From an uncultured Candidatus Bathyarchaeia archaeon (lineage in GTDB: Archaea; Thermoproteota; Bathyarchaeia; TCS64): a stretch of DNA of 64,000 nt. A program made the translations under genes and the position numbers. The notes under the pieces are model-generated. The model was not told the DNA's origin and made no database searches. It was given only the letters and a program-made list of their open reading frames with translations. The DNA lies in NCBI GenBank assembly GCA_964587735.1, contig CAZPMB010000002.1:1736-65735 (forward strand), given 5' to 3'. Shown piece after piece: positions 18,107 to 38,967 of this stretch. The first letter of the stretch is position 1; every line of letters starts with the position of its first letter.

Positions 18107-19120
18107 TCAGCAGATTCGGGGCATGGGGGATCCGACGGGTTCCCTTACTATCCTCCTCCCGCCTATGAAGGTCTCAAGTATGACCCTGCCCCTGCCCTCA
18201 TGGACCTCGCCAACTATTTTGGCGTATTTCCCATAGCGGTTTCTCCGCACGACCCTCAGGACATCCTCGGCCTTCTCGTCTTCAACGCCTATGATCGCTA
18301 TTCCCTCATTGGCGAGCTCCAGTGGGTCGAGGCCCAGGAGGTCGCAGGCACTCCTCACGACGCCCTTCACGGGAATCTCCCGCTCAAGGAGGTGGACTTC
18401 GACGCCTGACTTCCTCGCCATGTCGTTGAGGGCCCCGGAGACTCCACCTCGAGTGGGGTCCTTCATGGCTGTGATTCCGCCGACCCTCATCCCCTCGCAG
18501 AGCATCCCCGACAGGGGCGCCGCGTCGGACTCGATGGGCGCGTCGAGCTCCAGGCCCTCACGGGATACGAGGAGGGAGAGCTGGTGGTTCCCGATGGTCC
18601 CGGTTAGGATAATCTTGTTCCCTGGTTTAAGGCCGGAATCGGTCACTACCATGTCAGCGAGGCCAACGCCTGAGGCATTGATCATGAGCTCGGTGACACC
18701 GCCGTGCTCGACGACCTTTGTGTCGCCTGCGATGAGGGGGACTCCGATCTCCTCAAGGGATCCCCCCATGGACTTTACCACCCTCCTCAGCAGATCTATG
18801 TGGAGCCCCTCCTCGACGATGATCGAAGACATCATGGCGACGGGGGTTGCCCCCATGACGGCCAGGTCGTTCGCGGTCCCGCAGACCGCGAGCCTCCCTA
18901 TGTCGCCTCCCGGGAAGAAGAGTGGCCTCACCGTGTACGCGTCCGTGGTGACGACGATGTGGCGCCCGCACAGCGGGATCGTGGCGCCGTCATCCATCTC
19001 GGGTAGGCCGATCCCGCCCTCGACCCTGTTCAGCCGGTAGGCGGGGAGGATAACCTCCTCGATGAGCTGCCTCATGAGCCTCCCACCGCCGCCGTGCTCC
19101 ATCCTCACGACCTCGGTCAT
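18107..19120 (-). CDS. hypE: Hydrogenase maturation factor HypE
   Basis: PurM-like fold and C-terminal PRIC motif (carbamoyl/cyano-accepting Cys). Confidence 0.9.
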   Translation of the reverse strand: MTEVVRMEHGGGGRLMRQLIEEVILPAYRLNRVEGGIGLPEMDDGATIPLCGRHIVVTTDAYTVRPLFFPGGDIGRLAVCGTANDLAVMGATPVAMMSSIIVEEGLHIDLLRRVVKSMGGSLEEIGVPLIAGDTKVVEHGGVTELMINASGVGLADMVVTDSGLKPGNKIILTGTIGNHQLSLLVSREGLELDAPIESDAAPLSGMLCEGMRVGGITAMKDPTRGGVSGALNDMARKSGVEVHLLEREIPVKGVVRSACDLLGLDPLELANEGIAIIGVEDEKAEDVLRVVRRNRYGKYAKIVGEVHEGRGRVILETFIGGRRIVREPVGSPMPRIC

Positions 19121-19272: not shown

Positions 19273-19680
19273 ATGCACGAGTGGGCCTTGGCCGAGGGCG
19301 TAGTCTCCACCGCCACCAAGATCGCAGAGGAACAGGGGCTGGAAGAGGTCACGGAGGTGACAGTCAGGATAGGCGAGCTCCAGCAGATAGAGCACGAAGT
19401 CTTCAGTTTCGCTCTCGAGCAGCTCAGGACGCCTGTGATGAAGAACGCAAAGTTCGTCCTCGAGACGATCCCCGGAAAGTTGAGATGCCGGGCATGCGGC
19501 AAGGAGTGGCTCTTCAGCCCGGAGGCGCTGGGCGATGAGGTCTCGGAGGCCATCCACTTCGTTCCGGAGGTAGCCCACGTCTACGTCAAGTGCCCGAGCT
19601 GTGGGAGCCCGGACTTTGAGATCATCGAGGGGCGGGGAGTCATCCTGGCCTCTATTAAGGGGGTGAAGGGAAGTGATTGA
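19273..19680 (+). CDS. hypA: Hydrogenase nickel incorporation protein HypA
   Basis: MHEWALAEGVV N-terminus (MHE Ni site) and CRACG...CPSCG zinc ribbon. Confidence 0.85.
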   Translation: MHEWALAEGVVSTATKIAEEQGLEEVTEVTVRIGELQQIEHEVFSFALEQLRTPVMKNAKFVLETIPGKLRCRACGKEWLFSPEALGDEVSEAIHFVPEVAHVYVKCPSCGSPDFEIIEGRGVILASIKGVKGSD

Positions 19681-20410
19681 CCCCAGGCTTGAGATCATAG
19701 GCAAAAGGCTCGGGAAGATAGGGAAGATCGTGGCCGTCTCGAGCGGGAAGGGAGGCGTCGGCAAGAGCATGGTCGCTGCCATCCTGGCGCTCACCCTGAG
19801 GAGAGAGGGTTTCAGCGTTGGGCTGCTGGACTTAGACTTCACCAGCCCCTCGAGCCACGTCATCCTGGGTGTGGAGGGGCTCTACCCCGAGGAGGATAAA
19901 GGTATAGTGCCTCCTCTGGCCCATGGCATAATGTACATGTCCATAACCTACTACTCACTCGACAAGCCGGCCCCGCTGAGGGGTTCAGATGTCACAGACG
20001 CCATAATTGAGCTCCTGGCCATCACCAGATGGGGGGAGCTCGACTATCTGGTGATAGACATGCCGCCCGGCATAGGCGACGCCACCCTCGACCTGCTACG
20101 CCTCGTCAAGGGGATAAGCTTCCTCGTCGTGACTACTCCCTCGATGGTGGCCTTCGAGACCGTCAGAAAGCTCCTTGTCCTCTTACATGAGCTTGGTATT
20201 TCCATAATCGGCGTCGTCGAGAACATGGTGATGCAACCTTCGAGACAGATAAGGAGTCAGGTCGAACGAATCGGACAACGCTACCTTGGGGAAATACCCT
20301 TCGACAAGGAGCTGGAGGGGGCCCTCGGTGACGTCGAAAGGCTCATGGGCACCGGTTTCGCCTCATCGCTGAAGAAGATAGCCGGGGATGTTCAACAAAG
20401 GCTCAATTGA
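19673..20410 (+). CDS. Mrp/MinD-family P-loop ATPase, candidate ATPase-type HypB (Ni insertion partner of HypA)
   Basis: GKGGVGKS Walker A, ParA/MinD/Mrp fold. Overlaps the hypA stop by 8 nt. No GTPase-type hypB in the window. Confidence 0.6.
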   Translation: MIDPRLEIIGKRLGKIGKIVAVSSGKGGVGKSMVAAILALTLRREGFSVGLLDLDFTSPSSHVILGVEGLYPEEDKGIVPPLAHGIMYMSITYYSLDKPAPLRGSDVTDAIIELLAITRWGELDYLVIDMPPGIGDATLDLLRLVKGISFLVVTTPSMVAFETVRKLLVLLHELGISIIGVVENMVMQPSRQIRSQVERIGQRYLGEIPFDKELEGALGDVERLMGTGFASSLKKIAGDVQQRLN

Positions 20411-20629
20411 GAAGGATCTTAGAGGGACAAGGATATTGACTGCTCAGAGTCTCAGAGCTCCATTTACGATATGTAATGAGGATCTACTTCTCTGCGCGTG
20501 ATAACTGCACAAAATTCCGCTATTAAACTGGCGTATATGCTAGCATTAAAAGCCCTTTACTGGACTCCTTGCCCTCCGTCACCCGTAGGATTTATCCATC
20601 GCCATATATCATGGAAGGGGAGGATACCC

Positions 20630-21118
20630 ATGGTACCCATAGATGCCGTTGTCGATATCAGCAAGTCGGATGCCCGCTTCCTCCGCAGGCTCGCCGCGGA
20701 GATGGGCGCTTCCGACCTGAGCAAGTGCTTCCAGTGCGGCGTCTGCGTCGCCAGCTGTCCCGTCAGGGAGATCGAGGCGGAGTTCAACCCCAGGCGGATC
20801 ATGAAGCTGGCGAAGCTCGGCCTGAAGGACATCGTCCTCGGGAGCGATTTCATCTGGCTGTGCTCCATGTGCTTCATGTGCCACGAGCGCTGCCCCCAGG
20901 ACGTAAGGCCGCCCGAGGTTATGACGGTCCTGAGGAACATCGCCGCGAAGGAGGGCATTGCGCCGCCTAACCTGATGAAGCTCGTCGAAGTGCTCTCCGA
21001 GAACGGGAGGGTCTACCCACTCGACGACTTTACGATGGACGAAAGGCAGGACAGGGATCTACCCGAGGTAGAGTCCAAACCAGGGTTCGTGATGAAGATA
21101 GCAGGGGCGGGGAAATGA
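20630..21118 (+). CDS. hdrC: Heterodisulfide reductase subunit C
   Basis: Two CxxCxxC...CP ferredoxin-like motifs (CFQCGVCVASCP, CSMCFMCHERCP). ATG at 20630 preceded by GGAAGGGGAGG. The track ORF starts upstream at 20498. Confidence 0.8.
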   Translation: MVPIDAVVDISKSDARFLRRLAAEMGASDLSKCFQCGVCVASCPVREIEAEFNPRRIMKLAKLGLKDIVLGSDFIWLCSMCFMCHERCPQDVRPPEVMTVLRNIAAKEGIAPPNLMKLVEVLSENGRVYPLDDFTMDERQDRDLPEVESKPGFVMKIAGAGK

Positions 21119-21990
21119 GGTACGCCCTGTTCCTCGGCTGCACCATACCGGCCAGGCAGATGAACTACGAGCAGTCGGCCCGGACTGTAGCGAAGGCGCT
21201 GGGAATCGATCTGGTCGACGTCGACTTCGGTTGCTGCGGCTTTCCGATAGAGCCGGTAGACGAGGTAAAGGCCCTTTCCATGGCCGCTGTGAACCTCAAG
21301 AAGGGGAAGGAGAAAGGGCTCGATATCGTCACCCTGTGCTCTGCCTGCGGCGAGATGCTTACGAAGGCTGAGGAGGTCCTGGAGAAGGACGAAGCCATGG
21401 GAAAGAGCGTCAACGGCGTCCTCGGCAAACAGGTGGGCACAGAGTACAAAGGGGAGAAGCCCCGCGTCGTCCACTTCGCCAGGATGCTCTACGAGGACAT
21501 CGGTAGAGAGAAGATAAGAGCTCTAGTCAAGCGCCCGCTCCAGGGGCTGAAGATAGCGACCCACCCCGGCTGCCACTACGTGAGGCCCTCCAGCCTCAGC
21601 GGCGGATTCGACGACCCCGAGTTCCCCCACAGCCTCGACGAGCTCGTCGAGGCCACGGGCGCAGAGGCTGTAGACTATATGGGCAAGGAGGACTGCTGCG
21701 GGGGGAGCATCTTGGCCGTGAGGGAGGATGTCTCGAAGGCGATGACACGGAAGAAGCTAGAGGCGCTGAGCGGGAAGGTGGACGCGATGGTGTTAATCTG
21801 CCCGTTCTGTGGGATCATGTACGACAGGTACCAGAAGCTGATGGCCGACGAGCTGGAGAAGGAGTACAATGTCCCAGTGCTCTACTACCCTCAACTCCTG
21901 GGTCTGGCCCTTGGAATTGACCCTGAAAAGCTAGGTTTCGACGTCAACTCCGTGAGGGTTGACGGGGTTTTAGAGAAGGTGGGTGTCTGA
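21115..21990 (+). CDS. hdrB: Heterodisulfide reductase subunit B (two CCG domains)
   Basis: FGCCGFP and EDCCGGS CCG-domain motifs. MRYALFLGCT start. Confidence 0.85.
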   Translation: MRYALFLGCTIPARQMNYEQSARTVAKALGIDLVDVDFGCCGFPIEPVDEVKALSMAAVNLKKGKEKGLDIVTLCSACGEMLTKAEEVLEKDEAMGKSVNGVLGKQVGTEYKGEKPRVVHFARMLYEDIGREKIRALVKRPLQGLKIATHPGCHYVRPSSLSGGFDDPEFPHSLDELVEATGAEAVDYMGKEDCCGGSILAVREDVSKAMTRKKLEALSGKVDAMVLICPFCGIMYDRYQKLMADELEKEYNVPVLYYPQLLGLALGIDPEKLGFDVNSVRVDGVLEKVGV

Positions 21991-27306: not shown

Positions 27307-28164
27307 TCACTCCGTGAACTTCTGCAGCATTGAGGCATCGATCTTGTTGCTGTTGAACCCCAGATCGTCGTAGTCGATCCCGAGCGCCAGACCAAGCAGC
27401 TGCGGGTAGTGAACGATAGGCACGTTTGGGGGATTCTCCTGAATCAACTGGCACCTCTCGTATGTCAGGTAGCAGAACGGGCAGGCCGTGATCAGTATAT
27501 CCGCATACTTCTTTACAGTCTCCACCTTCTCAAGGCCGACGCTCCAGGTGACGGCCTCCCGGACTCCCATGATCGGCCCGGCGCAGCACTCCAGCTTGTT
27601 CGGGTAGGCGACGCTCTCCGCGCCAGTGACTTCTACGAGCTCGTCCAATGTTTTTGGTGCCTCTGGGTCGTCCTTGACCATGATGTCCGAGGGCTTCAGC
27701 ATGTGGCACCCATAGTGGGTTCCGACCCTCAGACCCTTCAGCGGCTGTGAAACCTGCGACCCGATCTTTTCTAGGCCTATGTCGTCCTTCAGCATCCTGG
27801 CGAAGTGCTTTACCTCCACCGTCCCCTTGAACTCCCTGCCGACGTCGGCGAGGACCTCATTGACCTCGGCCCTGAGCTTCGGGTCTTCCTTGAGCTCCTT
27901 GTTCGCCCTCATCAGGACCTCCGTGCAGCCGTTGCAGACCGTGACTATGTCTAGCTCCATCTCCTCCGCGATGCAGATGTTCCTTGCGGCGACGGCCAGC
28001 CCCGTATTGTGGTCCAAGGTCTCGAGGTATGTGGTGCCGCAGCAGCTCGAGCCTGGCATGTCCACCAGCTCGATACCCAGCCGCTCAGCGACCCTCCTCG
28101 TTGCCTTCTCGTATCCCCAGAGGCGGGCAAGGGTCGTGCAACCGGCGAAGAACGCGTACTTCAT
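27307..28164 (-). CDS. hdrB: Heterodisulfide reductase subunit B
   Basis: SSCCGTT and LECCAGP CCG motifs. MKYAFFAGCT start. Confidence 0.85.
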   Translation of the reverse strand: MKYAFFAGCTTLARLWGYEKATRRVAERLGIELVDMPGSSCCGTTYLETLDHNTGLAVAARNICIAEEMELDIVTVCNGCTEVLMRANKELKEDPKLRAEVNEVLADVGREFKGTVEVKHFARMLKDDIGLEKIGSQVSQPLKGLRVGTHYGCHMLKPSDIMVKDDPEAPKTLDELVEVTGAESVAYPNKLECCAGPIMGVREAVTWSVGLEKVETVKKYADILITACPFCYLTYERCQLIQENPPNVPIVHYPQLLGLALGIDYDDLGFNSNKIDASMLQKFTE

Positions 28165-28165
28165 C

Positions 28166-28678
28166 TCAGCCCTCCTCCACGAGGCCGAGGAAACCCGTCT
28201 TCCTCATTATCTTCTCGACCTCTTTGGCGTCTGGCTCGGGTGCGGGGGGCAGGTCCTCGTCCTCCCTCATCTCGTTCTGGAAGTCGTCTATCTCGTAGAT
28301 GTACCCAATCTCCGCCAGGGTGTTCATCAGCGCCCTGTGGGTCGGGTGGATTATCCCCCCCTTCACCGCCAGCTTCCGGAGCGCCGAGACTATCTCCGAG
28401 ATCCTAACCTGCTCCGGGCAGCGCTCGTAGCAGGTGTAGCACCCTGCGCAAAGCCACACGGTGTCGCCGACGAGCAGCCTTTCCTTCTGGCCGTAGATCG
28501 CTAGCCGCGCGATCTGCCTGGGCCTGAACGCCTCGACCCTCATGGCGATGGGGCAGTCGGCGGTACAGGTCCCACATTGGTAACAGAGCATCAGCTTCTC
28601 GGCGCCTGGTATCTGCATTAGGCGCTCCCTGAAGCCCTTGTCTGCCTGGGACATCCGGATCTCCTTACGCTCGGTCAA
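28166..28678 (-). CDS. hdrC: Heterodisulfide reductase subunit C
   Basis: CYQCGTCTADCP and CAGCYTCYERCP motifs. Confidence 0.8.
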   Translation of the reverse strand: MTERKEIRMSQADKGFRERLMQIPGAEKLMLCYQCGTCTADCPIAMRVEAFRPRQIARLAIYGQKERLLVGDTVWLCAGCYTCYERCPEQVRISEIVSALRKLAVKGGIIHPTHRALMNTLAEIGYIYEIDDFQNEMREDEDLPPAPEPDAKEVEKIMRKTGFLGLVEEG

Positions 28679-29121
28679 CTTACTCGCCCTCCGGCAGTGA
28701 TGACCTCCAACGGCCTTAGGGGGCTAGGTCCCAGCCTCTTCATGTCTGCGACCATCTCCTTCATCACTCGGGCAAATTTGTCCCCCTCCGCGGCAGAGAT
28801 CCATTCCAGCCTTAGACGTTCCGGCTCAAGCCCGAGCTGAGACATCAGCCTCTTCAGCATTGCGATCCGCCTCTTGGCCTTCAGATTACCGGTAATGTAG
28901 TGGCAGTCGTTGGGAGGGTGGCAGCCGGCGACTAACACTCCGTCTGCCCCGTCCCTGAACGCCTCCAAGATGAAGGCGGGGTGGACCCTCCCGCTACACA
29001 TCACCCTTATTACCCTTAGGTTTGGAGGGTACTGGAACCTGCTGACCCCGGCGAGGTCGGCCCCGGCGTAGCTGCACCAGTTGCAGAGGAACCCAACTAT
29101 CCTCGGCTCGAACTCGGTCAT
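28675..29121 (-). CDS. mvhD: MvhD (methyl-viologen-reducing hydrogenase delta subunit, [2Fe-2S])
   Basis: MTEFEPRIVGFLCNWCSYAGADLAG ... MCSGRV ... GCHPPNDCHY canonical MvhD cysteines. ATG at 29121 overlaps the stop of the upstream hdrA fusion (ATGA). Confidence 0.8.
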   Translation of the reverse strand: MTEFEPRIVGFLCNWCSYAGADLAGVSRFQYPPNLRVIRVMCSGRVHPAFILEAFRDGADGVLVAGCHPPNDCHYITGNLKAKRRIAMLKRLMSQLGLEPERLRLEWISAAEGDKFARVMKEMVADMKRLGPSPLRPLEVITAGGRVS

Positions 29122-32120
29122 GCCTTCACCTCCATGAGGGCGGCCCTCACCTGAGAGAGTATCTCGTCGTCCGTGAAGTGGCCGACCGTTATGGCCCCAG
29201 ACGGGCAAGTTGAGGCGCAGACACCGCAGCCCTTGCACAGCTCCTCTACGACGTGGGAGTGAACCTTACCCTCCTCCTCGACCATCTCGATGGCGTTGAA
29301 CTCGCAGACGCCTTCGCACATCCTGCAGCCTGAGCAGAAGTCCTCGTTAACGCTCGCAATGGCACCCTCCATCTCCAGCGTCTCTTTCGAAAGTATCGTC
29401 ATCGCTCTAGCGGCTGCACCGCAAGCCTGGCTTATGCTCTCGTCAATCGACTTCGGCCCGTGGGCCATCCCACAGAGGAAGACGCCGTCGGTGGCGAAGT
29501 CGAGGGGCCTCAGCTTCATGTGGGCCTCCAAGAAGAACCCATCCTTGCTGAGGGGTACCTTCAGAAGCCCTGCGATCCACCGGTTGTCGGGAGAGGGCAG
29601 GACCCCGGCGCTTAATACCACGGCCTCCGGCTCCATGATCACATTCTCTTTAAGTACCGGGTCCAAGACCTCGACTCTGAGACCGCTCTCTCTTGTGACC
29701 CGAGGCTTGTGCTCGTCATCGTACCGGATGAAGATGACGCCCTTCTTCGCGGCGTCCCTGTAGAAGTCCTCCTTGAATCCATAGGTACGCATGTCCTTGT
29801 AGAGGACGTAGATATCCGCGGCCGGGTTTACCTCCTTTACCTTGAGGGCGTTCTTCACGGCGTCGGTACAGCAGATCCTGGAGCAGTAAGGGCGCTCATC
29901 GCACCTGGAACCGACACACTGGATCATGACCACAGAGCTCGGTTTGAACCCATTCGCTAGTTTCTCCTCTAGCTCAAGCTGGGTCATCACATCCTCATCG
30001 GAGCCATAGAGGTACTCCTTGGGCTCGTACTCGACACCACCGGTGGCGATGACGACGACCCCGTGCTTGACCACCTCCTCGCCCTTCTTGCTGAGCAGCG
30101 TGGTCTCGAAGTTACCAATGTAGCCGCCCACGTCCTCCACCTTCGCGCCTAGGTGGACGTGGATCTTCTTGTTGCCCCTCACCCTGTTCACGAGCTCCCC
30201 CAGCTTCTTCTGAGGGTCAATTCCGCCAAGCGCGAATCTTAACCTCCTCAGGTTGCCACCTAGCTCGCTCTCCTTCTCCACGAGGTGGGTCTTAATGCCC
30301 TGCTCGGCGAGTTCGAGGGCCGCGGTCATGCCCGAGAGGCCCCCCCCAATTACTAGGGCTGCTGGGGTAACCTTGACCTGGGGCTTCTTCAGGGGCTGGA
30401 GGAGCCTGGCCTTGGCGACGGCCATCCTGACCAAGTCCTTCGCCTTCTGGGTGGCCTCCTCTGGCTCCCGCATATGGACCCAGCTGCACTGGTCCCTGAT
30501 GTTCGCCATCTCGAAAAGGTAGGGGTTCAGCCCCGCGTCTTGGAGGGTCGCCCTGAAGAGGGGCTCGTGGGTCCTCGGCGTGCATGAGGCCACTATTACC
30601 CGATTAAGCTTGTGCTCCAGTATCTTCTCCTTGATCTTCTCCTGAGTGTCCTGGGAGCAGGTGTAAAGGTTCCTCTCGGAGTACGCGACGCCGGGCAGGG
30701 TGCCTGCGTACTCTATGACCTCCGGAACGTTAACGACGCCTCCGATGTTGATGCCGCAGTGGCAGACGAAGACTCCAACTCTGGGCTCCTCGCCAGAGAT
30801 GTCCCTCTCGACGGGGTACTCCTCGCTCACAACGAGGGTGCCTCTCACAGAGGCGATCGCCCTCTCCGCCTTAGCTGCGGCCCCACTCGCCTGCGCAACG
30901 CTGTCGGGGATGTCCTTCGGAGAGGCGAATGCCCCGCACACGTAAACGCCTGGACAGGTCGTCTCCAACGGTGTGAAGAGCCCGGTCTTAGCAAATCCGT
31001 GCTCGTTGAGCTCGAAGCCAAGGACCTCGGAAAGCTTCCCAGCGTCTGCCGGTGGGTTCATTCCAACAGAGAGGACCACCATATTGAACCTCTCCCGCTT
31101 CACCTCGCCGTTCTCAACGTAAGTGACGAATAGGTCCTTGGTATCTGGGTCCTGGTCGGTGTGGGAGGCCCTGCTCCTGATGAACCTGACTCCGTGTTCC
31201 TCTTCTGCCCTGGCGTAGTAGTCGTCGAACTCCTTGCCAAAGGCGCGGACGTCCATGAAGAAGATTGAGGGCTTCAGCCCAGGGTTGTGCTCTTCGGCGA
31301 TGACAGCCTCCTTAATGGTGTACATGCAGCAGACGCCGCTGCAGTATGGGTTACCGACCCTCTCGTCCCTGCTGCCAACGCACTGTATAAAAGCAACCTT
31401 CTCAGGTAGCTCGCCATCGGATGGTCTTAGTACAACGCCCCGGTAGGGGCCAGTAGCGCTCAGGATGCGCTCGAACTCGATACTCGTCACGACGTTGGGG
31501 TACCGCCCATAGCCGTACTCTGTGACGATCCTCGGGTCGAACTCCTCAAAGCCGGGGGCGAGGATTATGGACCCGACCTCTAGCTCGACCTCTGAGTCCT
31601 CTTCATCGTAGCGGATAGCATTCGCCTTGCAGACCTCCTTACAGATGCCGCAGCCGAGGCACTTCTCCTTGTCGATAGTGAAGATGAGCGGCACCGCCTG
31701 GGAGTATCGGATGAAGACTCCCCTACGCTTGCTGAGGCCCTCGTTGTACTCGTCTATTGCCGAAGCGGGGCATTTCTGTGCGCAGATTGCGCACCCCGTG
31801 CATTTCTCGGGGTCTACCCTCATCGCCTTCTTTTTGAGAGTCGCCCTGAAGTCGCCCTCCTCCCCCTCCACACTCTTCAGCTCCGAGTAGGGCACGATCT
31901 GGATGTTCGGGTGCCTCCCGGCTCCTACGAGCTTCGGGGCGAGGATGCACATGGCGCAATCATTCGTTGGGAAGGTCTTGTCCAGCTGGGTCATTACCCC
32001 GCCGATGCTCGGCTCCTTCTCCACCAGATATACCTTGAATCCCGAGTCAGCCAGGTCCAGGCTCGCCTGTATGCCGGCTATGCCCCCACCGACGACCATC
32101 ACCGCACCGACTTTCCTCAT
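29118..32120 (-). CDS. hdrA: Tandem HdrA fusion: FAD-domain-only HdrA' fused in frame to a full-length HdrA (1000 aa)
   Basis: Two Rossmann FAD motifs (VVGGGIAGIQAS near the N-terminus; IGGGLSGMTAA near residue 580). The central VFVCHCGINIGG...CSWVH HdrA N-domain lies between them. The two halves are paralogous to the adjacent split pair at 34596..35918 and 32893..34593. Confidence 0.8.
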   Translation of the reverse strand: MRKVGAVMVVGGGIAGIQASLDLADSGFKVYLVEKEPSIGGVMTQLDKTFPTNDCAMCILAPKLVGAGRHPNIQIVPYSELKSVEGEEGDFRATLKKKAMRVDPEKCTGCAICAQKCPASAIDEYNEGLSKRRGVFIRYSQAVPLIFTIDKEKCLGCGICKEVCKANAIRYDEEDSEVELEVGSIILAPGFEEFDPRIVTEYGYGRYPNVVTSIEFERILSATGPYRGVVLRPSDGELPEKVAFIQCVGSRDERVGNPYCSGVCCMYTIKEAVIAEEHNPGLKPSIFFMDVRAFGKEFDDYYARAEEEHGVRFIRSRASHTDQDPDTKDLFVTYVENGEVKRERFNMVVLSVGMNPPADAGKLSEVLGFELNEHGFAKTGLFTPLETTCPGVYVCGAFASPKDIPDSVAQASGAAAKAERAIASVRGTLVVSEEYPVERDISGEEPRVGVFVCHCGINIGGVVNVPEVIEYAGTLPGVAYSERNLYTCSQDTQEKIKEKILEHKLNRVIVASCTPRTHEPLFRATLQDAGLNPYLFEMANIRDQCSWVHMREPEEATQKAKDLVRMAVAKARLLQPLKKPQVKVTPAALVIGGGLSGMTAALELAEQGIKTHLVEKESELGGNLRRLRFALGGIDPQKKLGELVNRVRGNKKIHVHLGAKVEDVGGYIGNFETTLLSKKGEEVVKHGVVVIATGGVEYEPKEYLYGSDEDVMTQLELEEKLANGFKPSSVVMIQCVGSRCDERPYCSRICCTDAVKNALKVKEVNPAADIYVLYKDMRTYGFKEDFYRDAAKKGVIFIRYDDEHKPRVTRESGLRVEVLDPVLKENVIMEPEAVVLSAGVLPSPDNRWIAGLLKVPLSKDGFFLEAHMKLRPLDFATDGVFLCGMAHGPKSIDESISQACGAAARAMTILSKETLEMEGAIASVNEDFCSGCRMCEGVCEFNAIEMVEEEGKVHSHVVEELCKGCGVCASTCPSGAITVGHFTDDEILSQVRAALMEVKA

Positions 32121-32896
32121 TCCGACACCTCCATCGCCGCGTAGATGGGAGAACTCCCTCGTATCTCTTGGACATCAACCCAGCCCAGCTGACGCATCGC
32201 CACTATATGTTCTAGGACCTTTTTGGAGTCAATGCCCAGCTTCTTCGAGAGCTCCTTGACCGAGGAGGGCTCTTGGAGAAGGGAGAGGCGGATCTTCTGG
32301 TGAACATACTCGCTTTCTAAGGCCTCGTCCATCACCTCGTCGAACTCGCCCTTCGCGACAGGCTCCCCATAGATGTTCCCTTCCTTGACGAGCTTCTCCT
32401 CCTTCCCCACAAGGGCCCTGAGCCTGTAGTTCTCAGCAGCAGCCTTCGCCGCCCTGAGGTTGAGAAGCAGCCCGGGGTCCGGTGAGTCGCCGGAGACAGA
32501 TGACGGGCCCAGCCCTCTGACCTTTTCTATGAAAGCTCCTACTTGGTCCGCGAACTTTTGACCCTCTGAGGCGAATATATACTCCAGAGCAAGCCTCTCG
32601 GGCTCGAAGCCTGCCTTCTCCAGTAGCCTCCTCGTAAAGTGGTACTTAGTTTCGACCTGCTCGTGGTTCCTGATGTAGTTGCAGCCGCCGAGTGTGCAAG
32701 TTGTGATCATGACGCCGTCGATCCCCTCCGAGAAGACCCTTAGCAGCATAGAGGGGTCAATCCTCCTACAACACATGACCCGGAGGAAGCGGATATTGGG
32801 GGGGTACTGGATCCTGCTGATCCCAGCCAGGTCGGCTACTGCATATCCGCAACAGTTGCACAGGAAACCTATCAGGCGCGGCTCGTACTCGGTCAT
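32117..32896 (-). CDS. MvhD domain fused to a C-terminal winged-helix-like domain
   Basis: N-terminal 135 aa is canonical MvhD (GFLCNCCGYAVADLAG, MCCRR, TCTLGGCNY). The C-terminal 120 aa carries SSVKELSKKLGIDSKKVLEHIVAMRQLGWV, which is HTH/wH-like. Confidence 0.7.
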   Translation of the reverse strand: MTEYEPRLIGFLCNCCGYAVADLAGISRIQYPPNIRFLRVMCCRRIDPSMLLRVFSEGIDGVMITTCTLGGCNYIRNHEQVETKYHFTRRLLEKAGFEPERLALEYIFASEGQKFADQVGAFIEKVRGLGPSSVSGDSPDPGLLLNLRAAKAAAENYRLRALVGKEEKLVKEGNIYGEPVAKGEFDEVMDEALESEYVHQKIRLSLLQEPSSVKELSKKLGIDSKKVLEHIVAMRQLGWVDVQEIRGSSPIYAAMEVSE

Positions 32897-34593
32897 TTTC
32901 CGGACCTCCCATCCACGGCGGCGAGGATCTGCGCCTCAAGCTGATCGTCAGTGAAGTGATGTATCGTTATGGCCCTCTCGGGGCAGCTTGCTGCACACAC
33001 GCCACAGCCACCGCAAAGGGAGCTATCGGCCCTCGAGATCCCGAGCTCGTCCTTGCGGATTGCGTTGTAGGGGCAGAGCTCTATGCAGATCCCACATCCG
33101 CTGCACTTCTTCTCGTCGATATCGGCGAAAGCCGCCCCCCTGCCTCGTCTGCGACTGAACCTGTTCTCCGCCGCCTTCGAACCGACGCCGAGCCCTTCGG
33201 ATATGCTCTCAACGGCGTCCTTAGGCGCCCGGGCGGTACCGCAAACGTAGACACCCTCTGTCGCGAAGTCTAGGGGACTCAGCTGGTGGGCCTCTTTAAA
33301 GAATCCGAAGGCGTCTAGGGGGAGCCTAAGCATCTCGGACATCTCCTGCGCCCCCTCTGCCGGCACAAGGGGTGTGGAAAGGACTACGAGGTCCGCGTTG
33401 AATTCCATCTCCTCGTTTATCGTTGGACTTAACACCCTGACCGCAACGCCTTCCTCACCTGGCGTCACAATGGGGGGCGTGTCGTCCTTGTACTTGATCA
33501 GCTTCACCCCTTTTCTCTTGGTGTTCAGCTCTAGAGCCGAGGACTCGATGCCGTAGGTCTGGAGGTCTTTGTATACGATGTAGATGTCCGTGTCCCTGCT
33601 CAGATCCCTGAGGATCTGGGCGTTTTTGAGGGCCGTGTTGCAGCAGATCCTCGAACAGTATGGACGCTCCTCACAGCGGGAGCCTGCGCACTGGATCATC
33701 ACAACCGTACGGACCCCGTCCAAGCTCCCGTTCTTCAGCATCTCCTCGAGTTCAAGCTGAGTTATTATCCTCTCGTCCCTACCATAACCATAAAGGCCCT
33801 TGGGTCTGAGTATGTCCGATCCTGTAGCCACGATAATCCTGCCCACGTTGAAGGCCCTCTTTTCAGCCCCCTTTGACTCGACCTCGATGTCGAAGCTGCC
33901 GATGGCTCCTGTTACGGATTTAACCCTCGATGATTTGTGGACCTCGATGTTCGGATTGTTCTCCACCGACCTGAGTAAGTGCTCAAGGACCTCGGAGCTG
34001 TCCCTCATCGTGGGGGAGAGCTTGTGAAGGCTCTTGAGCATACCGCCGAGCTCCGCTTGCTTCTCGACGAGGTGAACGTGGAACCCGAGGTCCGCCAGTG
34101 AGAGCGATGACGACATTCCCGATATCCCACCGCCCATCACGAGGACGTTCGGGTTCTGCTTTACCTCCGGGTCCTCCCAAGGGCTCAGAAGGCGGGCCTT
34201 TGCCACGGCCATCCTCACGAGGCCCTTCGCCTTATCCGTTGCCTTCCCTGGCTCCTCCCTGTGTACCCAGCTGCACTGCTCACGGATATTCGCCATCTCA
34301 ACGAGGTACTTGTTCAAGCCAGCCCTATTGAGGGCCGACTGGAATACAGCCTCGTGGGTCCTCGGCGTACATGCTGCTACGACGACCTTCTCAAGGTTAT
34401 TCTTCCTGATGGCGTCTTCGATCCTCTCTAGCCCGGTTGTCGAGCAAGCAAAGGCGTTCTCTTCGATATGGGCCACCCCAGGAATGCCCTTAGCATACTC
34501 GACCAGTTCGGGCACATCAACTACTCCGCCAATGTCTTTACCACACCGGCAGACGAATACGCCGACCCGTGGACTTGCGACGTTCTCTGACAT
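32893..34593 (-). CDS. hdrA: Heterodisulfide reductase subunit A (full length: N-domain, FAD domain, ferredoxins)
   Basis: VGVFVCRCGKDIGG...CSWVH N-domain, MGGGISGMSS FAD motif, C-terminal CSGCGICIELCP/CGGCGVCAASCP. Confidence 0.85.
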   Translation of the reverse strand: MSENVASPRVGVFVCRCGKDIGGVVDVPELVEYAKGIPGVAHIEENAFACSTTGLERIEDAIRKNNLEKVVVAACTPRTHEAVFQSALNRAGLNKYLVEMANIREQCSWVHREEPGKATDKAKGLVRMAVAKARLLSPWEDPEVKQNPNVLVMGGGISGMSSSLSLADLGFHVHLVEKQAELGGMLKSLHKLSPTMRDSSEVLEHLLRSVENNPNIEVHKSSRVKSVTGAIGSFDIEVESKGAEKRAFNVGRIIVATGSDILRPKGLYGYGRDERIITQLELEEMLKNGSLDGVRTVVMIQCAGSRCEERPYCSRICCNTALKNAQILRDLSRDTDIYIVYKDLQTYGIESSALELNTKRKGVKLIKYKDDTPPIVTPGEEGVAVRVLSPTINEEMEFNADLVVLSTPLVPAEGAQEMSEMLRLPLDAFGFFKEAHQLSPLDFATEGVYVCGTARAPKDAVESISEGLGVGSKAAENRFSRRRGRGAAFADIDEKKCSGCGICIELCPYNAIRKDELGISRADSSLCGGCGVCAASCPERAITIHHFTDDQLEAQILAAVDGRSGK

Positions 34594-34595
34594 AA

Positions 34596-35918
34596 TCAGC
34601 CCCCCCGACCTCCTGTTGCGATTCGGATGTCACTGACTGCCTTCAGCGCCACGGCACTCGCCTCGGTCACCGAGTCGGAGATGTCCCTGGGCCCATGGCT
34701 GCAGCCGCAGACGTAAATCCCCTCCCTAGTGGTCTCCAGGGGACCGAGAAATGGGTCCTCGACCCTAAAAAAGCCAAACTCATCCAAATCAACGCCTAAG
34801 GCTCCAGCGAGCCTGACGTTCTCGAACCTTGGGAGAACAGCAGCCGAGAGGATGGCCATGTCTACCTCCTTCCTCCCTATCTCACCGGTGTCGGTGTTCT
34901 CGTACCAGACGTACAGGTCCTTCGTGATGGGGTTCTCCCTGATCTCTCCGGGCTTGCCCCTGATGTAATCTACGCCGAGCTCATCCCGGGCCCTGTTGAC
35001 GAGACCCTGATAGTCCCTGCCAAAGGCTTTGACGTCTATGTAGAAGACATAAATCTCAGAGCTTGGGTACTTCTCCTTCACCGTGACCGCCTCCTTGGCC
35101 GTGTACATGCAGCATATGCCCGAGCAATAGGGGACGCCCACTCCTTCCCTGTGGCTCCTAGAGCCTACGCATTGGACAAAGGCCACCCTCTTGGCGAGCT
35201 TTCCATCCGACGGGCGCTCCAGCTCGCCGCCTGTGGGACCATACGGAGAGATGAGTCTCTCGAACTCTAGGGATGTGATCACGTTCTCGTACCGGTTATA
35301 CCCGTATTCCCCCATCTCCGTAGGGTCGTACTGCTGAAAACCTGTGGCGATGATGATAGAGGAGGCGTTAAGTGTACTCACCCTCACGCCCTCCTCCAAC
35401 CTGATGGCGTCGACCGGGCAGGCCTTCTCACAGGCCCTGCAGCCGCCGCCCTTGAAGTGATTGCAGGCCCCCTCATCTATTGAGGGCGCGTAGGGAACCG
35501 CCTGGGGAAACGGGATGTAGACGGCCTTCCGGGACTCGAACCCCGTCTGGAAATCGTCAGGGACGGTGGCAGGGCAGATCTCGACGCAGGTACCGCACCT
35601 TGTGCACCTAGATGGGTCTACGTGTCTCGGCCTCTGGACAACCCTCACTGCGAAGCGCCCTTTCGAGCCGTCGACGTCGACGACCTCTGATAGGGTGTGA
35701 ACCTCTATGTTGGGATGCCTATAGCACTCGATCATCTTGGGCTCTAGGATGCAGATGCAGCAGTTCATGGTGGGGAAGGTCTTGTCCAGCTGCGCCATGA
35801 CGCCCCCGACGTAGGGGGCCTTCTCTACGATGTGGACATGGATCCCCTGGTTCGCCAGGCTGAGGGATGCCTGCAGGCCGGCCACGCCCCCGCCTATCAC
35901 TAAGACGCTCCCTTCCAA
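34596..35918 (-). CDS. HdrA-like FAD/ferredoxin protein lacking the HdrA N-terminal Cys domain (HdrA')
   Basis: Starts directly at VLVIGGGVAGLQAS (FAD). Has an inserted 2x[4Fe-4S] ferredoxin (CTRCGTCVEICP; CRACEKACP). 440 aa. Paralogous to the first half of the 1000-aa fusion. Confidence 0.8.
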   Translation of the reverse strand: MEGSVLVIGGGVAGLQASLSLANQGIHVHIVEKAPYVGGVMAQLDKTFPTMNCCICILEPKMIECYRHPNIEVHTLSEVVDVDGSKGRFAVRVVQRPRHVDPSRCTRCGTCVEICPATVPDDFQTGFESRKAVYIPFPQAVPYAPSIDEGACNHFKGGGCRACEKACPVDAIRLEEGVRVSTLNASSIIIATGFQQYDPTEMGEYGYNRYENVITSLEFERLISPYGPTGGELERPSDGKLAKRVAFVQCVGSRSHREGVGVPYCSGICCMYTAKEAVTVKEKYPSSEIYVFYIDVKAFGRDYQGLVNRARDELGVDYIRGKPGEIRENPITKDLYVWYENTDTGEIGRKEVDMAILSAAVLPRFENVRLAGALGVDLDEFGFFRVEDPFLGPLETTREGIYVCGCSHGPRDISDSVTEASAVALKAVSDIRIATGGRGG

Positions 35919-35920
35919 CG

Positions 35921-36802
35921 CTACCCCTCCAGTACCTTCTCTAGCACGAAGTCTATCGGGCTTAGGTTCAGGTCGAGCCCAAGCTTCTCTGGCCCAAGCC
36001 CCATTGCGAGGCCAAGCAGCTGTGTATAATAGAATACCGGTACCTCTAGGGACCTGTCCCCCATTGCTGCTTGAATTGCCCTCTGCCTGTTGTCGAAGAC
36101 CTTAAAGCAGAATGGGCAGACGGTGACAAGGCCATCGAACCCGAACTTCCTTACGGACTGGAGCTTCTCCCCTGCGATGAGAAGTGTGGTCTTTCCTGAG
36201 GCAATCGCCAAAGATGAGCCGCAGCAGTCGGTTTTCTCTGGGTAATCCATCACATCGGAGCCGAGGGCTCTCATCAGGTCATCGAGCTTCTGGGGGTTCT
36301 CCGGGTCGTCCGTATGCTTCAGCTCCCCGCCCCTTATTGCGTGGCAGCCAGGATGGGTCGCGAACTTCAGGCCCTTTATTGGCCTGATCACGCTGGCTCC
36401 TATCGTGTCGACTCCTACGATGTCGTGAAGGATCTCAAGTATGTGTACTATTCTCACGCTCCCCGTGTATGTCAGCCCTTCCTTTTTCAGATCCTTATTG
36501 ATGGAATCCCTAGTCCTCGGGTTGACCTCAAGGTGGTGTTTGGTCTCCGCGAAGGACATGTGGCAACCATTGCAGAGGGGGAAGAGATCCAGTCTTAGGC
36601 CTTCCGCGATCGCCATGTTTCGCGCTGAGAGATAGTACCAAGCCGACGGGTAAACGCTGCTGAATGCCGGGAACCCGCAGCAGCTGGTCCCCTCCATGTC
36701 GACAAGCTCGACGCCGATCCTGGGCAGCACCTCCCTGACCGAGGCCTCGTATCCGAACTGCTCAGTCTGAACTGTGCAACCCGGATAAAACGCGTACTTC
36801 AA
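35921..36802 (-). CDS. hdrB: Heterodisulfide reductase subunit B
   Basis: TSCCGFP and TDCCGSS CCG motifs. Confidence 0.85.
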   Translation of the reverse strand: MKYAFYPGCTVQTEQFGYEASVREVLPRIGVELVDMEGTSCCGFPAFSSVYPSAWYYLSARNMAIAEGLRLDLFPLCNGCHMSFAETKHHLEVNPRTRDSINKDLKKEGLTYTGSVRIVHILEILHDIVGVDTIGASVIRPIKGLKFATHPGCHAIRGGELKHTDDPENPQKLDDLMRALGSDVMDYPEKTDCCGSSLAIASGKTTLLIAGEKLQSVRKFGFDGLVTVCPFCFKVFDNRQRAIQAAMGDRSLEVPVFYYTQLLGLAMGLGPEKLGLDLNLSPIDFVLEKVLEG

Positions 36803-36814
36803 TACCAGACCCTC

Positions 36815-37327
36815 CTATGAAAGCTTCTTCAGGTTCTCGTGGAACGCTTCCATGTCCTTAGGCTTCTCCACTGGGGGCAGCCCAAGAGACTTCCTGTCGT
36901 GCCTGCCGCCCTTCCTGGCCCGGACCTGCTGGGGCTCGCCGGAAATCCCTTTCTCCACGACGGTCCTGATGAAGTCATCGTAGCCTGAGGGGTGCTCGTA
37001 GCCCGCCCGGTACGCCAGAGTTCTGAGCACCAGTATAACGTCGTAGGGGGAGATCTGCTCGGGGCACCTCTCCTTGCACTTTAGGCAGGAGGTACAGGTC
37101 CATAGCAACTCCGACTTGAGGAGCTCCCCCAACTTCCCGAGGGAGACCTTCGAGATGAGCTGACGGGGGTTGAACCCTTCGATGTACTTCGACACGGGGC
37201 ACGCTGAGGAGCACTTGCCGCACTGGTCACACACCTCGGCAGTCTCGCTCACGGCCCTCTGGAGCAGTGTGGTGATGAACTCTTCCTGCTGATCCCTGAT
37301 CTCGCCCAAACTAGGTCCCTGTTTCAC
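36815..37327 (-). CDS. hdrC: Heterodisulfide reductase subunit C
   Basis: CDQCGKCSSACP and CTSCLKCKERCP motifs. First gene of the 12-gene minus-strand operon. Confidence 0.8.
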   Translation of the reverse strand: MKQGPSLGEIRDQQEEFITTLLQRAVSETAEVCDQCGKCSSACPVSKYIEGFNPRQLISKVSLGKLGELLKSELLWTCTSCLKCKERCPEQISPYDVILVLRTLAYRAGYEHPSGYDDFIRTVVEKGISGEPQQVRARKGGRHDRKSLGLPPVEKPKDMEAFHENLKKLS

Positions 37328-37597
37328 TCTTTTTAAAAGGAATTTTCATTAAATATGCAAAAATGAATGTTTTTAACAATCATCAGGCACTTCCCGCGAC
37401 TCTTCTTACCTCCTTGCCGGGTGAATTTAAATCTTACCTGATAGCAGAAAGAATTAAATTCGACTTTTATAGTGATTATTTCATAACAAAATAAAAAAAG
37501 ATAATGTATGTAACATGATGATCAATCTTGAAGGGAATGTTTTTTTTATAGTATCTAGAGTAAATAACCAGTAAATTCTCGGGGTGGATGAAGCGGC
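37328..37597. promoter_or_regulatory. 270-bp AT-rich divergent promoter region between the two hdr operons, with candidate TATA boxes on both strands and GAATT(T)AAAT(T)C-like repeated motifs
   Basis: GC far below the genome average. TTTTTATA at 37543..37550 about 48 nt upstream of the plus hdrC. ctttttaaaagg/attaaatatg near the minus hdrC start. gaatttaaatc (37423..37433) and near-palindromic gaattaaattc (37451..37461). Confidence 0.5.
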
Positions 37598-38080
37598 ATG
37601 GTTACGTCGAGGGAGCTCTTAAGCAGGTTAGTCGACGAGAAAAAGCTCACCTACTGCGAAAATTGCGGTATGTGCACTGCCAGCTGCCCCCTCGCTAGGG
37701 CGATCCCAGAGATCTACAACCCAAGAGTTCTTCTGCAGAGGGTGATCTTCGATCTGGACGAACTCATCAAGAGCGAGGAGTTCTGGCTGTGCGCATGGTG
37801 CTACAGATGCACGGAGAGATGCCCCCAGGGCATACAGCCGACAGAGATATTCCTCCTCACCAGGAACTTTGCGGTGGAGAAAGGACACGTGCCGAACAAC
37901 CCCAAGGCGATCATGAGGGAGATCATAAGATCAGGTAGATCGATACCCGTCTTCGAGGACTTCGACGACTGGCGGGAGGACTATGGCTTGCCCCCGATCG
38001 GACCCACCATCTCGAAGGAAGCCCTGGAGGAGCAGAGGAAGATAATGGGAGAAGAGTTCTTGAGGAGGCTACAGGGTTGA
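37598..38080 (+). CDS. hdrC: Heterodisulfide reductase subunit C
   Basis: CENCGMCTASCP and CAWCYRCTERCP motifs. GGGGTGGA Shine-Dalgarno-like sequence upstream. Confidence 0.8.
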   Translation: MVTSRELLSRLVDEKKLTYCENCGMCTASCPLARAIPEIYNPRVLLQRVIFDLDELIKSEEFWLCAWCYRCTERCPQGIQPTEIFLLTRNFAVEKGHVPNNPKAIMREIIRSGRSIPVFEDFDDWREDYGLPPIGPTISKEALEEQRKIMGEEFLRRLQG

Positions 38081-38967
38081 GCCTGGATTACCTACTTTAT
38101 CCAGGGTGCGTCGCCTCAGTGAGGGAACTCGGCTACGAGATCTCCATGAGGAGGGTCTTTGAAGCCCTAGATATAGGGTTGAAAAAATCCAACGATTTCA
38201 ACTGCTGCATGCCGGCCTGCCTCGTCCACAGCTTCGATTACAAGAGGGGGCTCGCCCTCACGTCGAGGAACCTATGCATCGCGGGCGAGTTCGATATGCC
38301 ACTGCTGACCCTCTGCTCGAGCTGCTTCGGCAACCTCTCGAGGGCCAAATACCTACTCGACACAAACGATGACCTAAGGAGGGACGTTAACGACATTCTC
38401 GGCGAGGTTGGAAGAGAGTATAAGAGCGGCGTGAGGGTGGAACAGGTCATAACGGCGCTCTATAAAGATTATACAGTTAAGAAGCTCAAGAGAATGATCG
38501 GGTCTCCCCTTAAAAAGGTGAAGGCTGCACCCTTCTACGGCTGCCATATATTCCTCCCGGGCCGTTACACCAAGTTCGATGACTCCGAGTTTCCAAAGAA
38601 CCTCGATAGTCTGATAAGAGTCACAGGTGCGGAAAGCGTGGACTACCATGAGAAGACCAGCTGCTGCATAGGTTGTGGCTCTTTCTTTGGGGAGTTATCC
38701 GAGAAGGCATCAGTCATACTCGCCGAGACAATACTCGAAAGCGCAAGCAAAGTGAGTGCTGACTGCATCATAACCACGTGCCCCTTCTGCATCATGCAGC
38801 TGGAGATGGGCCAGATCCGCCTAAAGACTGAGAAGGGGGTAGATTACAGGATGCCGGTGATGCATTACGTAGATCTCCTCGGCCTCTCTATGGGGTTGAG
38901 TGCAAAGGAACTCGGTTTGGACATTCGAAGATCGGACATGAACCCCTTTCTGTCTAAAATTAACTGA
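38077..38967 (+). CDS. HdrB-like protein with degenerate CCG motifs (HdrB2-like variant)
   Basis: HdrB fold and length, but the two CCG signatures read FNCCMPAC and TSCCIGCG instead of CCG. YPGC...CSSC and FYGC...CPFC framework retained. Confidence 0.75.
   Translation: MSLDYLLYPGCVASVRELGYEISMRRVFEALDIGLKKSNDFNCCMPACLVHSFDYKRGLALTSRNLCIAGEFDMPLLTLCSSCFGNLSRAKYLLDTNDDLRRDVNDILGEVGREYKSGVRVEQVITALYKDYTVKKLKRMIGSPLKKVKAAPFYGCHIFLPGRYTKFDDSEFPKNLDSLIRVTGAESVDYHEKTSCCIGCGSFFGELSEKASVILAETILESASKVSADCIITTCPFCIMQLEMGQIRLKTEKGVDYRMPVMHYVDLLGLSMGLSAKELGLDIRRSDMNPFLSKIN

Follow-up and report, generated by a model that had tools for sequence, protein, structure and literature searches.

The 64,000-nucleotide stretch of contig CAZPMB010000002.1 analysed here (the window), which derives from an uncultured Candidatus Bathyarchaeia archaeon, encodes four pairs of HdrC- and HdrB-like proteins of the heterodisulfide reductase (Hdr) type. 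The HdrB of one pair, designated HdrBv, departs from the other three copies at both of its CCG motifs. Judging from sequence comparisons, HdrBv is a member of a conserved archaeal HdrB subfamily, not a decayed copy; its cluster-binding machinery is intact, and the elements that recognise coenzyme M (CoM) and coenzyme B (CoB) in the methanogen enzyme are largely replaced. On balance, we consider it probable that hdrBv encodes a functional, catalytic and lineage-restricted HdrB, in which a remodelled pocket with protein-borne thiols serves a substrate other than CoM-S-S-CoB. HdrABC-type complexes are common in archaea and bacteria that are not methanogens, and for most of them the thiol/disulfide substrate is not known; the finding bears on that question.

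The variant gene and its signature motifs

The genes and motifs on which the comparison is based are as follows.

38077–38967, forward strand: hdrBv, HdrB-subfamily gene; 296 amino acids (aa), two CCG domains, ten cluster-ligand cysteines plus two extra invariant cysteines
38203–38220, forward strand: N-terminal signature CCMPAC (C43 C44 M45 P46 A47 C48) within FNCCMPAC, residues 41–48; C48 is extra
38662–38679, forward strand: C-terminal signature CCIGCG (C196 C197 I198 G199 C200 G201) within TSCCIGCG, residues 194–201; C200 is extra
37598–38080, forward strand: hdrCv, dedicated HdrC-like ferredoxin; 160 aa, eight cysteines in two CxxCxxCxxxCP motifs, Pfam Fer4_8/17
35921–36802, reverse strand: hdrB_a, canonical, motifs CCGFP and CCGSS; divergent from hdrCv-hdrBv
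27307–28164, reverse strand: hdrB paralogue, motifs CCGTT and CCAGP
21115–21990, forward strand: hdrB paralogue, motifs CCGFP and CCGGS

Reading the sequence confirmed the open reading frame (ORF) at 38077–38967 with FNCCMPAC and TSCCIGCG, as described in an earlier prediction made from the letters of the window (the original prediction), and the canonical CCG motifs that it had reported for the other three HdrB copies agree as well. The TTG start of hdrBv overlaps the TGA stop of the upstream hdrCv by four bases, so that the two genes are translationally coupled, and a Shine-Dalgarno sequence, GAGGAGG, lies 8–14 bases 5' of this start. The predicted N-terminus, MSLDYLLYPGC, agrees with those of the homologues (M-S/T-L-E-Y...PGC), consistent with the TTG start. 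Pfam recognised two CCG stretches in HdrBv (PF02754, 70.9 bits; cut-off 20.6). The NCBIfam equivalog model for CoB-CoM HdrB, TIGR03288, gave 249.7 bits, under its cut-off of 345.15, and the three paralogues in the window, at 241–295 bits, likewise remained under it.

Both signatures are highly conserved. CCIGCG[SA]FF, with rare variants in the flanks, was found in 119 of the 120 homologues detected (45–99% identity); the sole non-member, P0120 (37% identity), carries CCGFF and CCGAP and is a canonical outgroup. The full-length members also carry CC[MQAH]PAC, with CCxPAC in 105 of 106. Pro46, Ala47, Leu49, Ile198, Gly199, Cys200, Phe203 and Gly205 are invariant in all 106, and all six residues of CCIGCG are present in 105–106 of them. 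Cys48 is retained in all but one full-length member; the exception, P0105, which stands for a cluster of seven sequences, reads CCMPAF (Phe at position 48) yet keeps CCIGCGAFL, and may be either a natural single-cysteine variant or a sequencing error. In the 27 distinct DNA versions the codons for the two extra cysteines are split between TGT and TGC (14:13 and 12:15), and every synonymous alternative is in use for the Ile, Gly, Pro and Ala residues of the motifs. As the synonymous codons are scrambled, the conservation reflects purifying selection on the amino acids rather than recent common descent.

The signature appeared to be confined to a single clade. When 1.84 billion cluster representatives (50% identity) were searched exhaustively with phmmer, 2285 HdrB-like proteins were obtained. 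Among the matches listed, one representative bears the signature (P0093, 386 bits), the next match scored 230 bits, and neither CCIGC nor CCxPAC occurs in the other 148 best-scoring HdrB-like representatives listed of the 2285 found. A few unrelated clades (e.g., P0171, P0182, P0196 and P0220) have a cysteine two to four residues past the second CCG, but none at both sites. The isolation of the clade is judged from this drop in score (386 to 230 bits) together with the motif census.

The locus survey covered contigs of the Genome Taxonomy Database (GTDB), one genome per species. The signature loci came from Bathyarchaeia, from metagenome-assembled genomes (MAGs) of Asgard archaea (Jordarchaeia, Freyarchaeia and Loki-labelled), from one Nitrososphaeria-labelled MAG and from one Krumholzibacteriaceae-labelled contig; the homologues of HdrBv span two archaeal phyla. 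The contig labelled Candidatus Krumholzibacteriaceae bacterium (L018, DATKWN010000035.1) carries a full cluster of the bathyarchaeal type, hdrCv-hdrBv-hdrC-hdrB-hdrA-hdrA-mvhD-hdrA-mvhD-hdrC-hdrB, with proteins 56–80% identical to those of the window. As its gene order is bathyarchaeal, it is probably a mis-binned archaeal contig. Taken together, the sequences indicate a clade that is restricted to Bathyarchaeia and Asgard archaea and is distinct by its signature and rebuilt pocket, rather than a new kind of system.

The searchable literature yielded no description of the CCxPAC/CCIGCG signature, the full-text matches being irrelevant nucleotide strings. The hdrBv family is annotated generically, and its nearest relatives outside the family likewise bear only 'HdrB family' names. 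CCxPAC together with CCIGCG provides a clean sequence marker for this one Bathyarchaeia/Asgard HdrB clade, for which the name 'CoB-CoM heterodisulfide reductase subunit B' probably misstates the function.

Cluster ligands and fold

The original prediction had called the two CCG motifs degenerate. This is wrong, because HdrBv keeps every one of the ten ligand cysteines, spacing included, and the motifs are under strong purifying selection. In both the pairwise alignment with 5ODC_B and a 236-sequence MAFFT alignment, HdrBv has a cysteine at each of the ten ligand positions of 5ODC, so that in cysteine count and spacing both non-cubane sites are still satisfied, the very result that the original prediction had named as counting against it. 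The corresponding positions (5ODC to HdrBv) are:

Site 1: C9 to C11, C41 to C43, C42 to C44, C78 to C80, C81 to C83
Site 2: C153 to C156, C193 to C196, C194 to C197, C231 to C235, C234 to C238

The ligands of HdrBv are spaced by X31, X35 and CXXC at site 1 and by X39, X37 and CXXC at site 2; the second CC-to-CXXC spacer (X37) is one residue longer than that of 5ODC and than the published range (CX31-39CCX35-36CXXC). Apart from five N-terminally truncated sequences, the ten cysteines are fully kept in the 106 family members. They include C83 and C238, the equivalents of Cys81 and Cys234, which are the bridging cysteines on the catalytic irons of HdrB. The glycine after the first CC is not obligatory, as the first site of the solved methanogen HdrB reads CCPAPG and as the residue at this position in 125 other HdrB-like representatives is Pro in 32 (Gly in 84).

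The fold also appeared to be that of HdrB. The best match of HdrBv in a phmmer search of all Protein Data Bank (PDB) chains was HdrB of M. thermolithotrophicus (5ODC_B, E=7e-59, residues 4–295), and the canonical neighbour copy scored about equally (2e-62). A profile search of the PDB with the family alignment returned methanogen HdrB and one weak, unrelated match only. The AlphaFold2 (AF2) model of HdrBv, for which a 15-sequence family alignment was the input, had a predicted local distance difference test score (pLDDT) of 84 and a predicted template modelling score (pTM) of 0.86. Foldseek aligned it to 8RVY_B, 7BKB_B and 5ODC_B with TM scores of 0.90–0.92 and root-mean-square deviations of 2.0–2.3 Å.

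Remodelling of the substrate pocket

The substrate contacts published in 2026 for the 5ODR product complex (PMC13261682) were transferred to HdrBv by alignment. In methanogen HdrB, Gly46 and Gly198 hold the CoM sulfonate by hydrogen bonds from their backbone NH groups, Arg201 forms a pair with the CoB carboxylate, Arg14 and Arg240 do so with the CoB phosphate, and Phe233 lines the tunnel (PMC13261682). The equivalents are:

5ODC Gly46 (CoM sulfonate, NH): Cys48 in HdrBv; unambiguous, CCPAPG against CCMPAC with no indel
5ODC Gly198 (CoM sulfonate, NH): Ser202; Cys200 lies one or two residues before, at the Ala196 or Gly197 position
5ODC Arg201 (CoB carboxylate): Gly205
5ODC Arg240 (CoB phosphate): Met244; Val, Ile, Met or Leu in the family
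5ODC Arg14 (CoB phosphate): Arg16, kept
5ODC Phe233 (tunnel): Phe237, kept

HdrBv thus lacks two of the three arginines that bind CoB, and the equivalent of Arg14 is the only family-wide survivor of the five CoM/CoB contacts (Gly46, Gly198, Arg201, Arg14 and Arg240). The glycine-rich loop of 5ODC, GAGGGV, is replaced by IGCGSFF with the bulky residues Ile198, Phe203 and Phe204 and a one-residue insertion; because the placement of this insertion is ambiguous, C200 corresponds to either Ala196 or Gly197. In length, the loops after both CC motifs are nearer to those of methanogen HdrB than to those of most other HdrB-like proteins.

The segments of Gly46 and Gly198 face each other across the pocket by the clusters, since the NH groups of both bind the same sulfonate. 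In the AF2 model, residues 45 and 199 each start a short helix, which would place both extra cysteines in a first helical turn, the helix N-termini being directed toward the CoM site; this arrangement in space we infer from the model and the alignment. The first turn at the N-terminus of a helix typically stabilises thiolates. Extra cysteines at the place where CoM is bound suggest a different thiol/disulfide substrate. The original prediction had taken the altered motifs to suggest either a different substrate or a non-catalytic role. A different substrate is plausible, because a cysteine takes the place of Gly46 in the CoM pocket and because Arg201 and Arg240 of the CoB site have become Gly205 and Met244.

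The HdrB paralogues at 21115–21990 (forward strand), 27307–28164 (reverse strand) and 35921–36802 (reverse strand) differ among themselves where the CoB phosphate is contacted: arginines equivalent to Arg14 and Arg240 of 5ODC are present in HdrB_b and HdrB_c, and HdrB_a has Glu and Asn instead. An equivalent of Arg240 is uncommon among the 125 other HdrB-like representatives. As the contact positions differ, the four HdrB copies of the window may have different substrates.

Gene neighbourhood in the window and in other genomes

The hdrCv-hdrBv pair stands divergently to a large Hdr-hydrogenase cluster, and its other immediate neighbours encode an M20 peptidase and an amidohydrolase. The relevant features are listed below.

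20498–21990 (forward), 27307–28678 (reverse), 35921–37327 (reverse) and 37598–38967 (forward): the four hdrC-hdrB pairs of the window, according to Pfam
37328–37597: AT-rich divergent intergenic region between hdrC_a and hdrCv, with a TATA-like TTTTATAG about 50 bases 5' of the hdrCv ATG; presumed promoter region for both operons
36815–37327, reverse strand: hdrC_a, canonical, divergent from hdrCv-hdrBv
34596–35918, reverse strand: hdrA, 440 aa, core protein
32893–34593, reverse strand: hdrA, 566 aa, N-terminal domain, partial core and C-terminal ferredoxin
32117–32896, reverse strand: mvhD-like, 259 aa; C-terminal half with weak matches of helix-turn-helix (HTH) type in homologues
29118–32120, reverse strand: hdrA, tandem fusion, 1000 aa
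24432–32120, reverse strand: rest of the supercluster, namely hdrA (1000 aa), mvhD, hdrC_b, hdrB_b, mvhG, mvhA ([NiFe] hydrogenase) and hycI protease
6457–7527 (forward) and 8511–9509 (reverse): LipS1/LipS2-like radical S-adenosylmethionine (SAM) proteins
7751–8524, reverse strand: LplA-type lipoate ligase

The 440-aa, 566-aa and 259-aa proteins fall on different parts of the NCBIfam model of HdrA2, an HdrA-MvhD fusion, and together they resemble a heterodimeric HdrA, split over two genes, with MvhD added. HdrCv scored 112 bits with TIGR03290, under the cut-off of 160 bits, and its gene lies directly 5' of hdrBv in every signature locus examined.

Several arrangements were found, and in most of them the pair adjoins a supercluster of split hdrA, mvhD and [NiFe]-hydrogenase genes. 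The divergent layout of the window recurs in Bathyarchaeia (L001, L008–L010, L012, L013 and L024), the order opposite the pair being hdrC_a-hdrB_a-hdrA(440)-hdrA(566)-mvhD(259)-hdrA(1000)-mvhD-hdrC_b-hdrB_b-mvhG-mvhA. In other Bathyarchaeia (L017–L020) the pair heads the same cluster on the same strand and is directly followed by the canonical hdrC_a-hdrB_a; the order of the supercluster is kept in L001, L008–L010 and L018–L020. In Asgard operons (L002, L003, L006, L007, L025–L028 and L030), hdrCv-hdrBv-hdrA(~450)-hdrA(~565)-mvhD lie on one strand, with more hdrA-like genes behind them; this end has no other hdrCB, and the genes upstream of it are unrelated. Finally, six or seven loci (L011, L014–L016 and L021–L023) hold stand-alone pairs. 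Two bathyarchaeal MAGs, UBA8941 (L009/L011) and C20_metabat.bin.87 (L021/L024), possess two variant pairs each, one by the supercluster and one stand-alone.

The most divergent signature pair belongs to Bathyarchaeota UBA233 (L004/L031, DAZI01000028.1, 9501–13550; 47% identity, CCAPAC and CCIGCGAFF). It is followed on the same strand not by hdrA but by genes for a GlcD-like oxidase of 480 aa that binds flavin adenine dinucleotide and an HdrD-like Fe-S/CCG protein of 394 aa, and on its 5' side lie GcvH-like, sLpl(AB)-like and LipT-like genes and two radical SAM genes. These neighbours suggest that the HdrCvBv module can couple to different electron-input modules.

Comparison with known systems

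HdrB of the methanogen HdrABC-MvhAGD complex (PDB 5ODC/5ODR, 7BKB and 8RVU) is the closest known counterpart in structure, sharing with HdrBv the fold (TM 0.90–0.92), two CCG domains, ten cysteine ligands, an adjacent HdrC with two [4Fe-4S] motifs, a genomic tie to HdrA, MvhD and the MvhAG hydrogenase, similar loop lengths after the CC motifs, and the Arg14 and Phe233 positions. HdrBv differs by the change of Gly46 to Cys48, of CCGAGGGVR to CCIGCGSFFG with the one-residue insertion, of Arg201 to Gly and of Arg240 to Met, Val, Ile or Leu, by a TIGR03288 score below the equivalog cut-off, and by its hosts, which are Bathyarchaeia and Asgard archaea rather than classical methanogens.

HdrBv shares with DsrK, TmcB and HmcF a protein cysteine that is strictly conserved and adjoins a non-cubane [4Fe-4S] cluster. 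For the conserved Cys329 of DsrK, binding to the cluster and a part in the disulfide/trisulfide reduction of a protein-bound substrate have been proposed. Nevertheless, DsrK has lost one cluster site, of which the special cysteine is the remnant (GECGH), whereas HdrBv has both sites complete and one new cysteine at each. The DsrK-type T/GECGH motif is absent from HdrBv, the first cysteine of its second site being in FYGCH, and HdrBv is soluble and HdrA-linked, whereas DsrK, TmcB and HmcF are membrane- and quinone-linked.

In ferredoxin:thioredoxin reductase (FTR), an Fe-S cluster lies next to a protein disulfide that is redox-active and hands electrons on to an external disulfide by thiol-disulfide exchange. 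The likeness to HdrBv is a functional analogy only, as FTR has an unrelated fold and a single, cubane cluster, and the disulfide of HdrBv is hypothetical.

Mycobacterial EtfD (PDB 9OJN) is a distant Foldseek match of the HdrBv model. There, His583 from the CxxC region completes the coordination of a CCG cluster, the cavity is occluded, and one site holds a linear [3Fe-4S] cluster through loss of a ligand cysteine. EtfD is a membrane-bound, quinone-reducing protein of aerobic metabolism with a histidine as the extra ligand, whereas HdrBv has two extra cysteines, as candidate ligands, at the right place in the sequence.

Possible function and alternative explanations

If hdrBv does encode a catalytic HdrB, HdrCvBv would be the thiol/disulfide-converting output module of a flavin-based, electron-bifurcating HdrA complex that is linked to H2 through MvhAGD and would be built from the split HdrA (440 and 566 aa) plus MvhD. 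Cys48 and Cys200 may stand in for the coenzyme thiols. Either the two would form a redox-active Cys48-Cys200 disulfide between the clusters, or each extra cysteine would bind the catalytic iron of its own cluster and then form a mixed disulfide with an incoming thiol. From there, the disulfide of an external protein or small molecule would receive the reducing equivalents via thiol-disulfide exchange, as happens in FTR and as is proposed for the conserved cysteine of DsrK. This mechanism is supported by the pocket mapping, by the precedent of the DsrK cysteine and by the displacement of a bridging cysteine by a ligand, which is known at a non-cubane cluster. It is attractive to speculate, although we regard this version as rather doubtful, that HdrBv carries its own 'heterodisulfide', with Cys48 and Cys200 at the positions of the CoM and CoB thiols cycling between a disulfide and two iron-bound thiolates. 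If this is the case, Bathyarchaeia and Asgard archaea would possess a coenzyme-independent high-potential acceptor for flavin-based electron bifurcation, and the old question of what Hdr reduces without CoM and CoB would be answered for these lineages. The hdrCv-hdrBv pair is a two-gene unit small enough for heterologous expression, as with HdrB2C2 of M. acetivorans.

Several observations weigh against a catalytic role with a substrate of its own. An all-against-all BLAST comparison found no conserved neighbour beyond hdrCv in the stand-alone loci, and no substrate candidate is consistently encoded beside hdrCv-hdrBv; as the stand-alone loci share only hdrCv, guilt by association yields no substrate. 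The confidence of the AF2 model is just 60–75 in the cluster loops of HdrBv, including the two helix starts, and the placement of the insertion after the second CC is ambiguous. P0105 has lost Cys48 while holding Cys200, which argues against an obligatory disulfide pair. The main alternative is an HdrB that serves as an electron relay. The extra cysteines would then stay bound to the catalytic irons as sixth ligands, the clusters would act as non-catalytic wires, and HdrCvBv would do no more than pass electrons within a multi-Hdr complex or to another partner. In favour of a relay, the bulky Ile198, Phe203 and Phe204 in place of the glycine-rich loop and the loss of charged CoB-binding residues fit a closed pocket, and many Bathyarchaeia have a second, canonical hdrCB beside the variant. 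EtfD offers the model for such a relay, since His583 renders its non-cubane cluster non-catalytic. We nevertheless think a relay unlikely. At the hdrA(440/566)-mvhD end of the Asgard operons the variant is the only hdrCB; the bridging C83 and C238, which give catalytic flexibility and on which EtfD does not rely, are retained; the extra ligand of EtfD comes from another position, in the CxxC region; and the oxygen-protection rationale proposed for EtfD would not apply, because these organisms are anaerobes. A decaying paralogue under relaxed constraint, by comparison, is hardly credible and is refuted by the conservation data. It has in its favour only the first impression of a CCG glycine missing at both sites, against an intact ORF with a coupled start and a Shine-Dalgarno sequence, a signature kept in 105–106 of 106 members with synonymous change saturated, homologues in two archaeal phyla across a wide range of identity, and an HdrB-model score equal to those of the canonical paralogues (249.7 versus 241–295 bits).

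That HdrBv is an ordinary CoM-S-S-CoB reductase isoenzyme of a methane- or alkane-metabolising archaeon, with motif changes of no functional meaning, appears very improbable. Its best PDB and NCBIfam matches are indeed methanogen HdrB (5ODC_B, E=7e-59; TIGR03288, 249.7 bits), and the loops after both CC motifs are methanogen-like in length. Nevertheless, the TIGR03288 score is well under the 345-bit equivalog cut-off, no member of the family retains the equivalents of Gly46, Arg201 and Arg240, the 64-kb window showed no methanogenesis genes, and the hosts are Bathyarchaeia, Jordarchaeia, Freyarchaeia and Loki-type MAGs. To our knowledge, archaea of these groups mostly lack methyl-coenzyme M reductase (MCR).

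The original prediction had likened the gene to HdrB2 of the sHdr systems of sulfur oxidisers, and one may suppose accordingly that the hdrCB pairs on either side of hdrA assemble into a complex of the sHdr kind that acts on a lipoate-binding protein. As in sHdr, two different HdrCB pairs accompany one HdrA set, and lipoate-assembly genes occur in the same region: LipS1/LipS2-like radical SAM and lipoate ligase genes lie at 6.4–9.5 kb of the window, the lipoate genes of UBA233 directly adjoin the variant pair, and GcvH-like genes occur near Mvh/Hdr clusters in at least ten further Bathyarchaeia loci. We still regard this counterpart as improbable, and the likeness was not supported. In the sHdr literature, sHdrB2 is described as able to bind two classical non-cubane clusters; HdrBv is set apart from it by this published description and by gene context rather than by sequence grouping. 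The sHdr order hdrC1-hdrB1-hdrA-hyp-hdrC2-hdrB2, with a short sHdrA, is not present; the window has hdrCv-hdrBv and then, divergently, hdrC_a-hdrB_a-hdrA440-hdrA566-mvhD, with a long, bifurcating HdrA2-like HdrA accompanied by MvhD and a [NiFe] hydrogenase in an anaerobic context. Neither LbpA nor a sulfur transferase such as DsrE/TusA or rhodanese is encoded beside the pair, although no window-wide search for sulfur transferases was made, and tblastn with a bathyarchaeal GcvH-like query gave no GcvH/LbpA match in the window at E<=1e-5. The lipoate genes of the window are 28 kb off, and lipoyl genes adjoin the pair in just one of about 27 signature loci. As such genes accompany canonical HdrB paralogues elsewhere, the lipoate link is not specific to the variant.

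Lipoyl-protein genes near Hdr clusters

At least 11 further bathyarchaeal loci have a GcvH-like gene, often with LipS1, LipS2 or Lpl, at a distance of a few kb from mvhGA-hdrA-hdrC-hdrB clusters (GcvH-near-Hdr loci: L004, L039, L047, L048, L054, L066, L068, L070, L071, L073 and L076). This hints at a link between lipoyl proteins and Hdr in anaerobic archaea, parallel to that of sHdr and LbpA. We considered such a link as the explanation of the variant and rejected it, as GcvH and lipoate genes also stand by canonical HdrB paralogues and are missing beside most signature loci.

Further genes of the window

Hydrogenase maturation and related genes were found just upstream of a third hdrCB-hdrA unit, the hdrA of which (776 aa) is fused to MvhD.

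14642–15718, forward strand: hypD
15713–18049, reverse strand: hypF
18107–19120, reverse strand: hypE-like
19673–20410, forward strand: Mrp/NUBPL-type Fe-S ATPase

The window also encodes an anaerobic ribonucleotide reductase, and its gene content is consistent with an H2-metabolising anaerobe.

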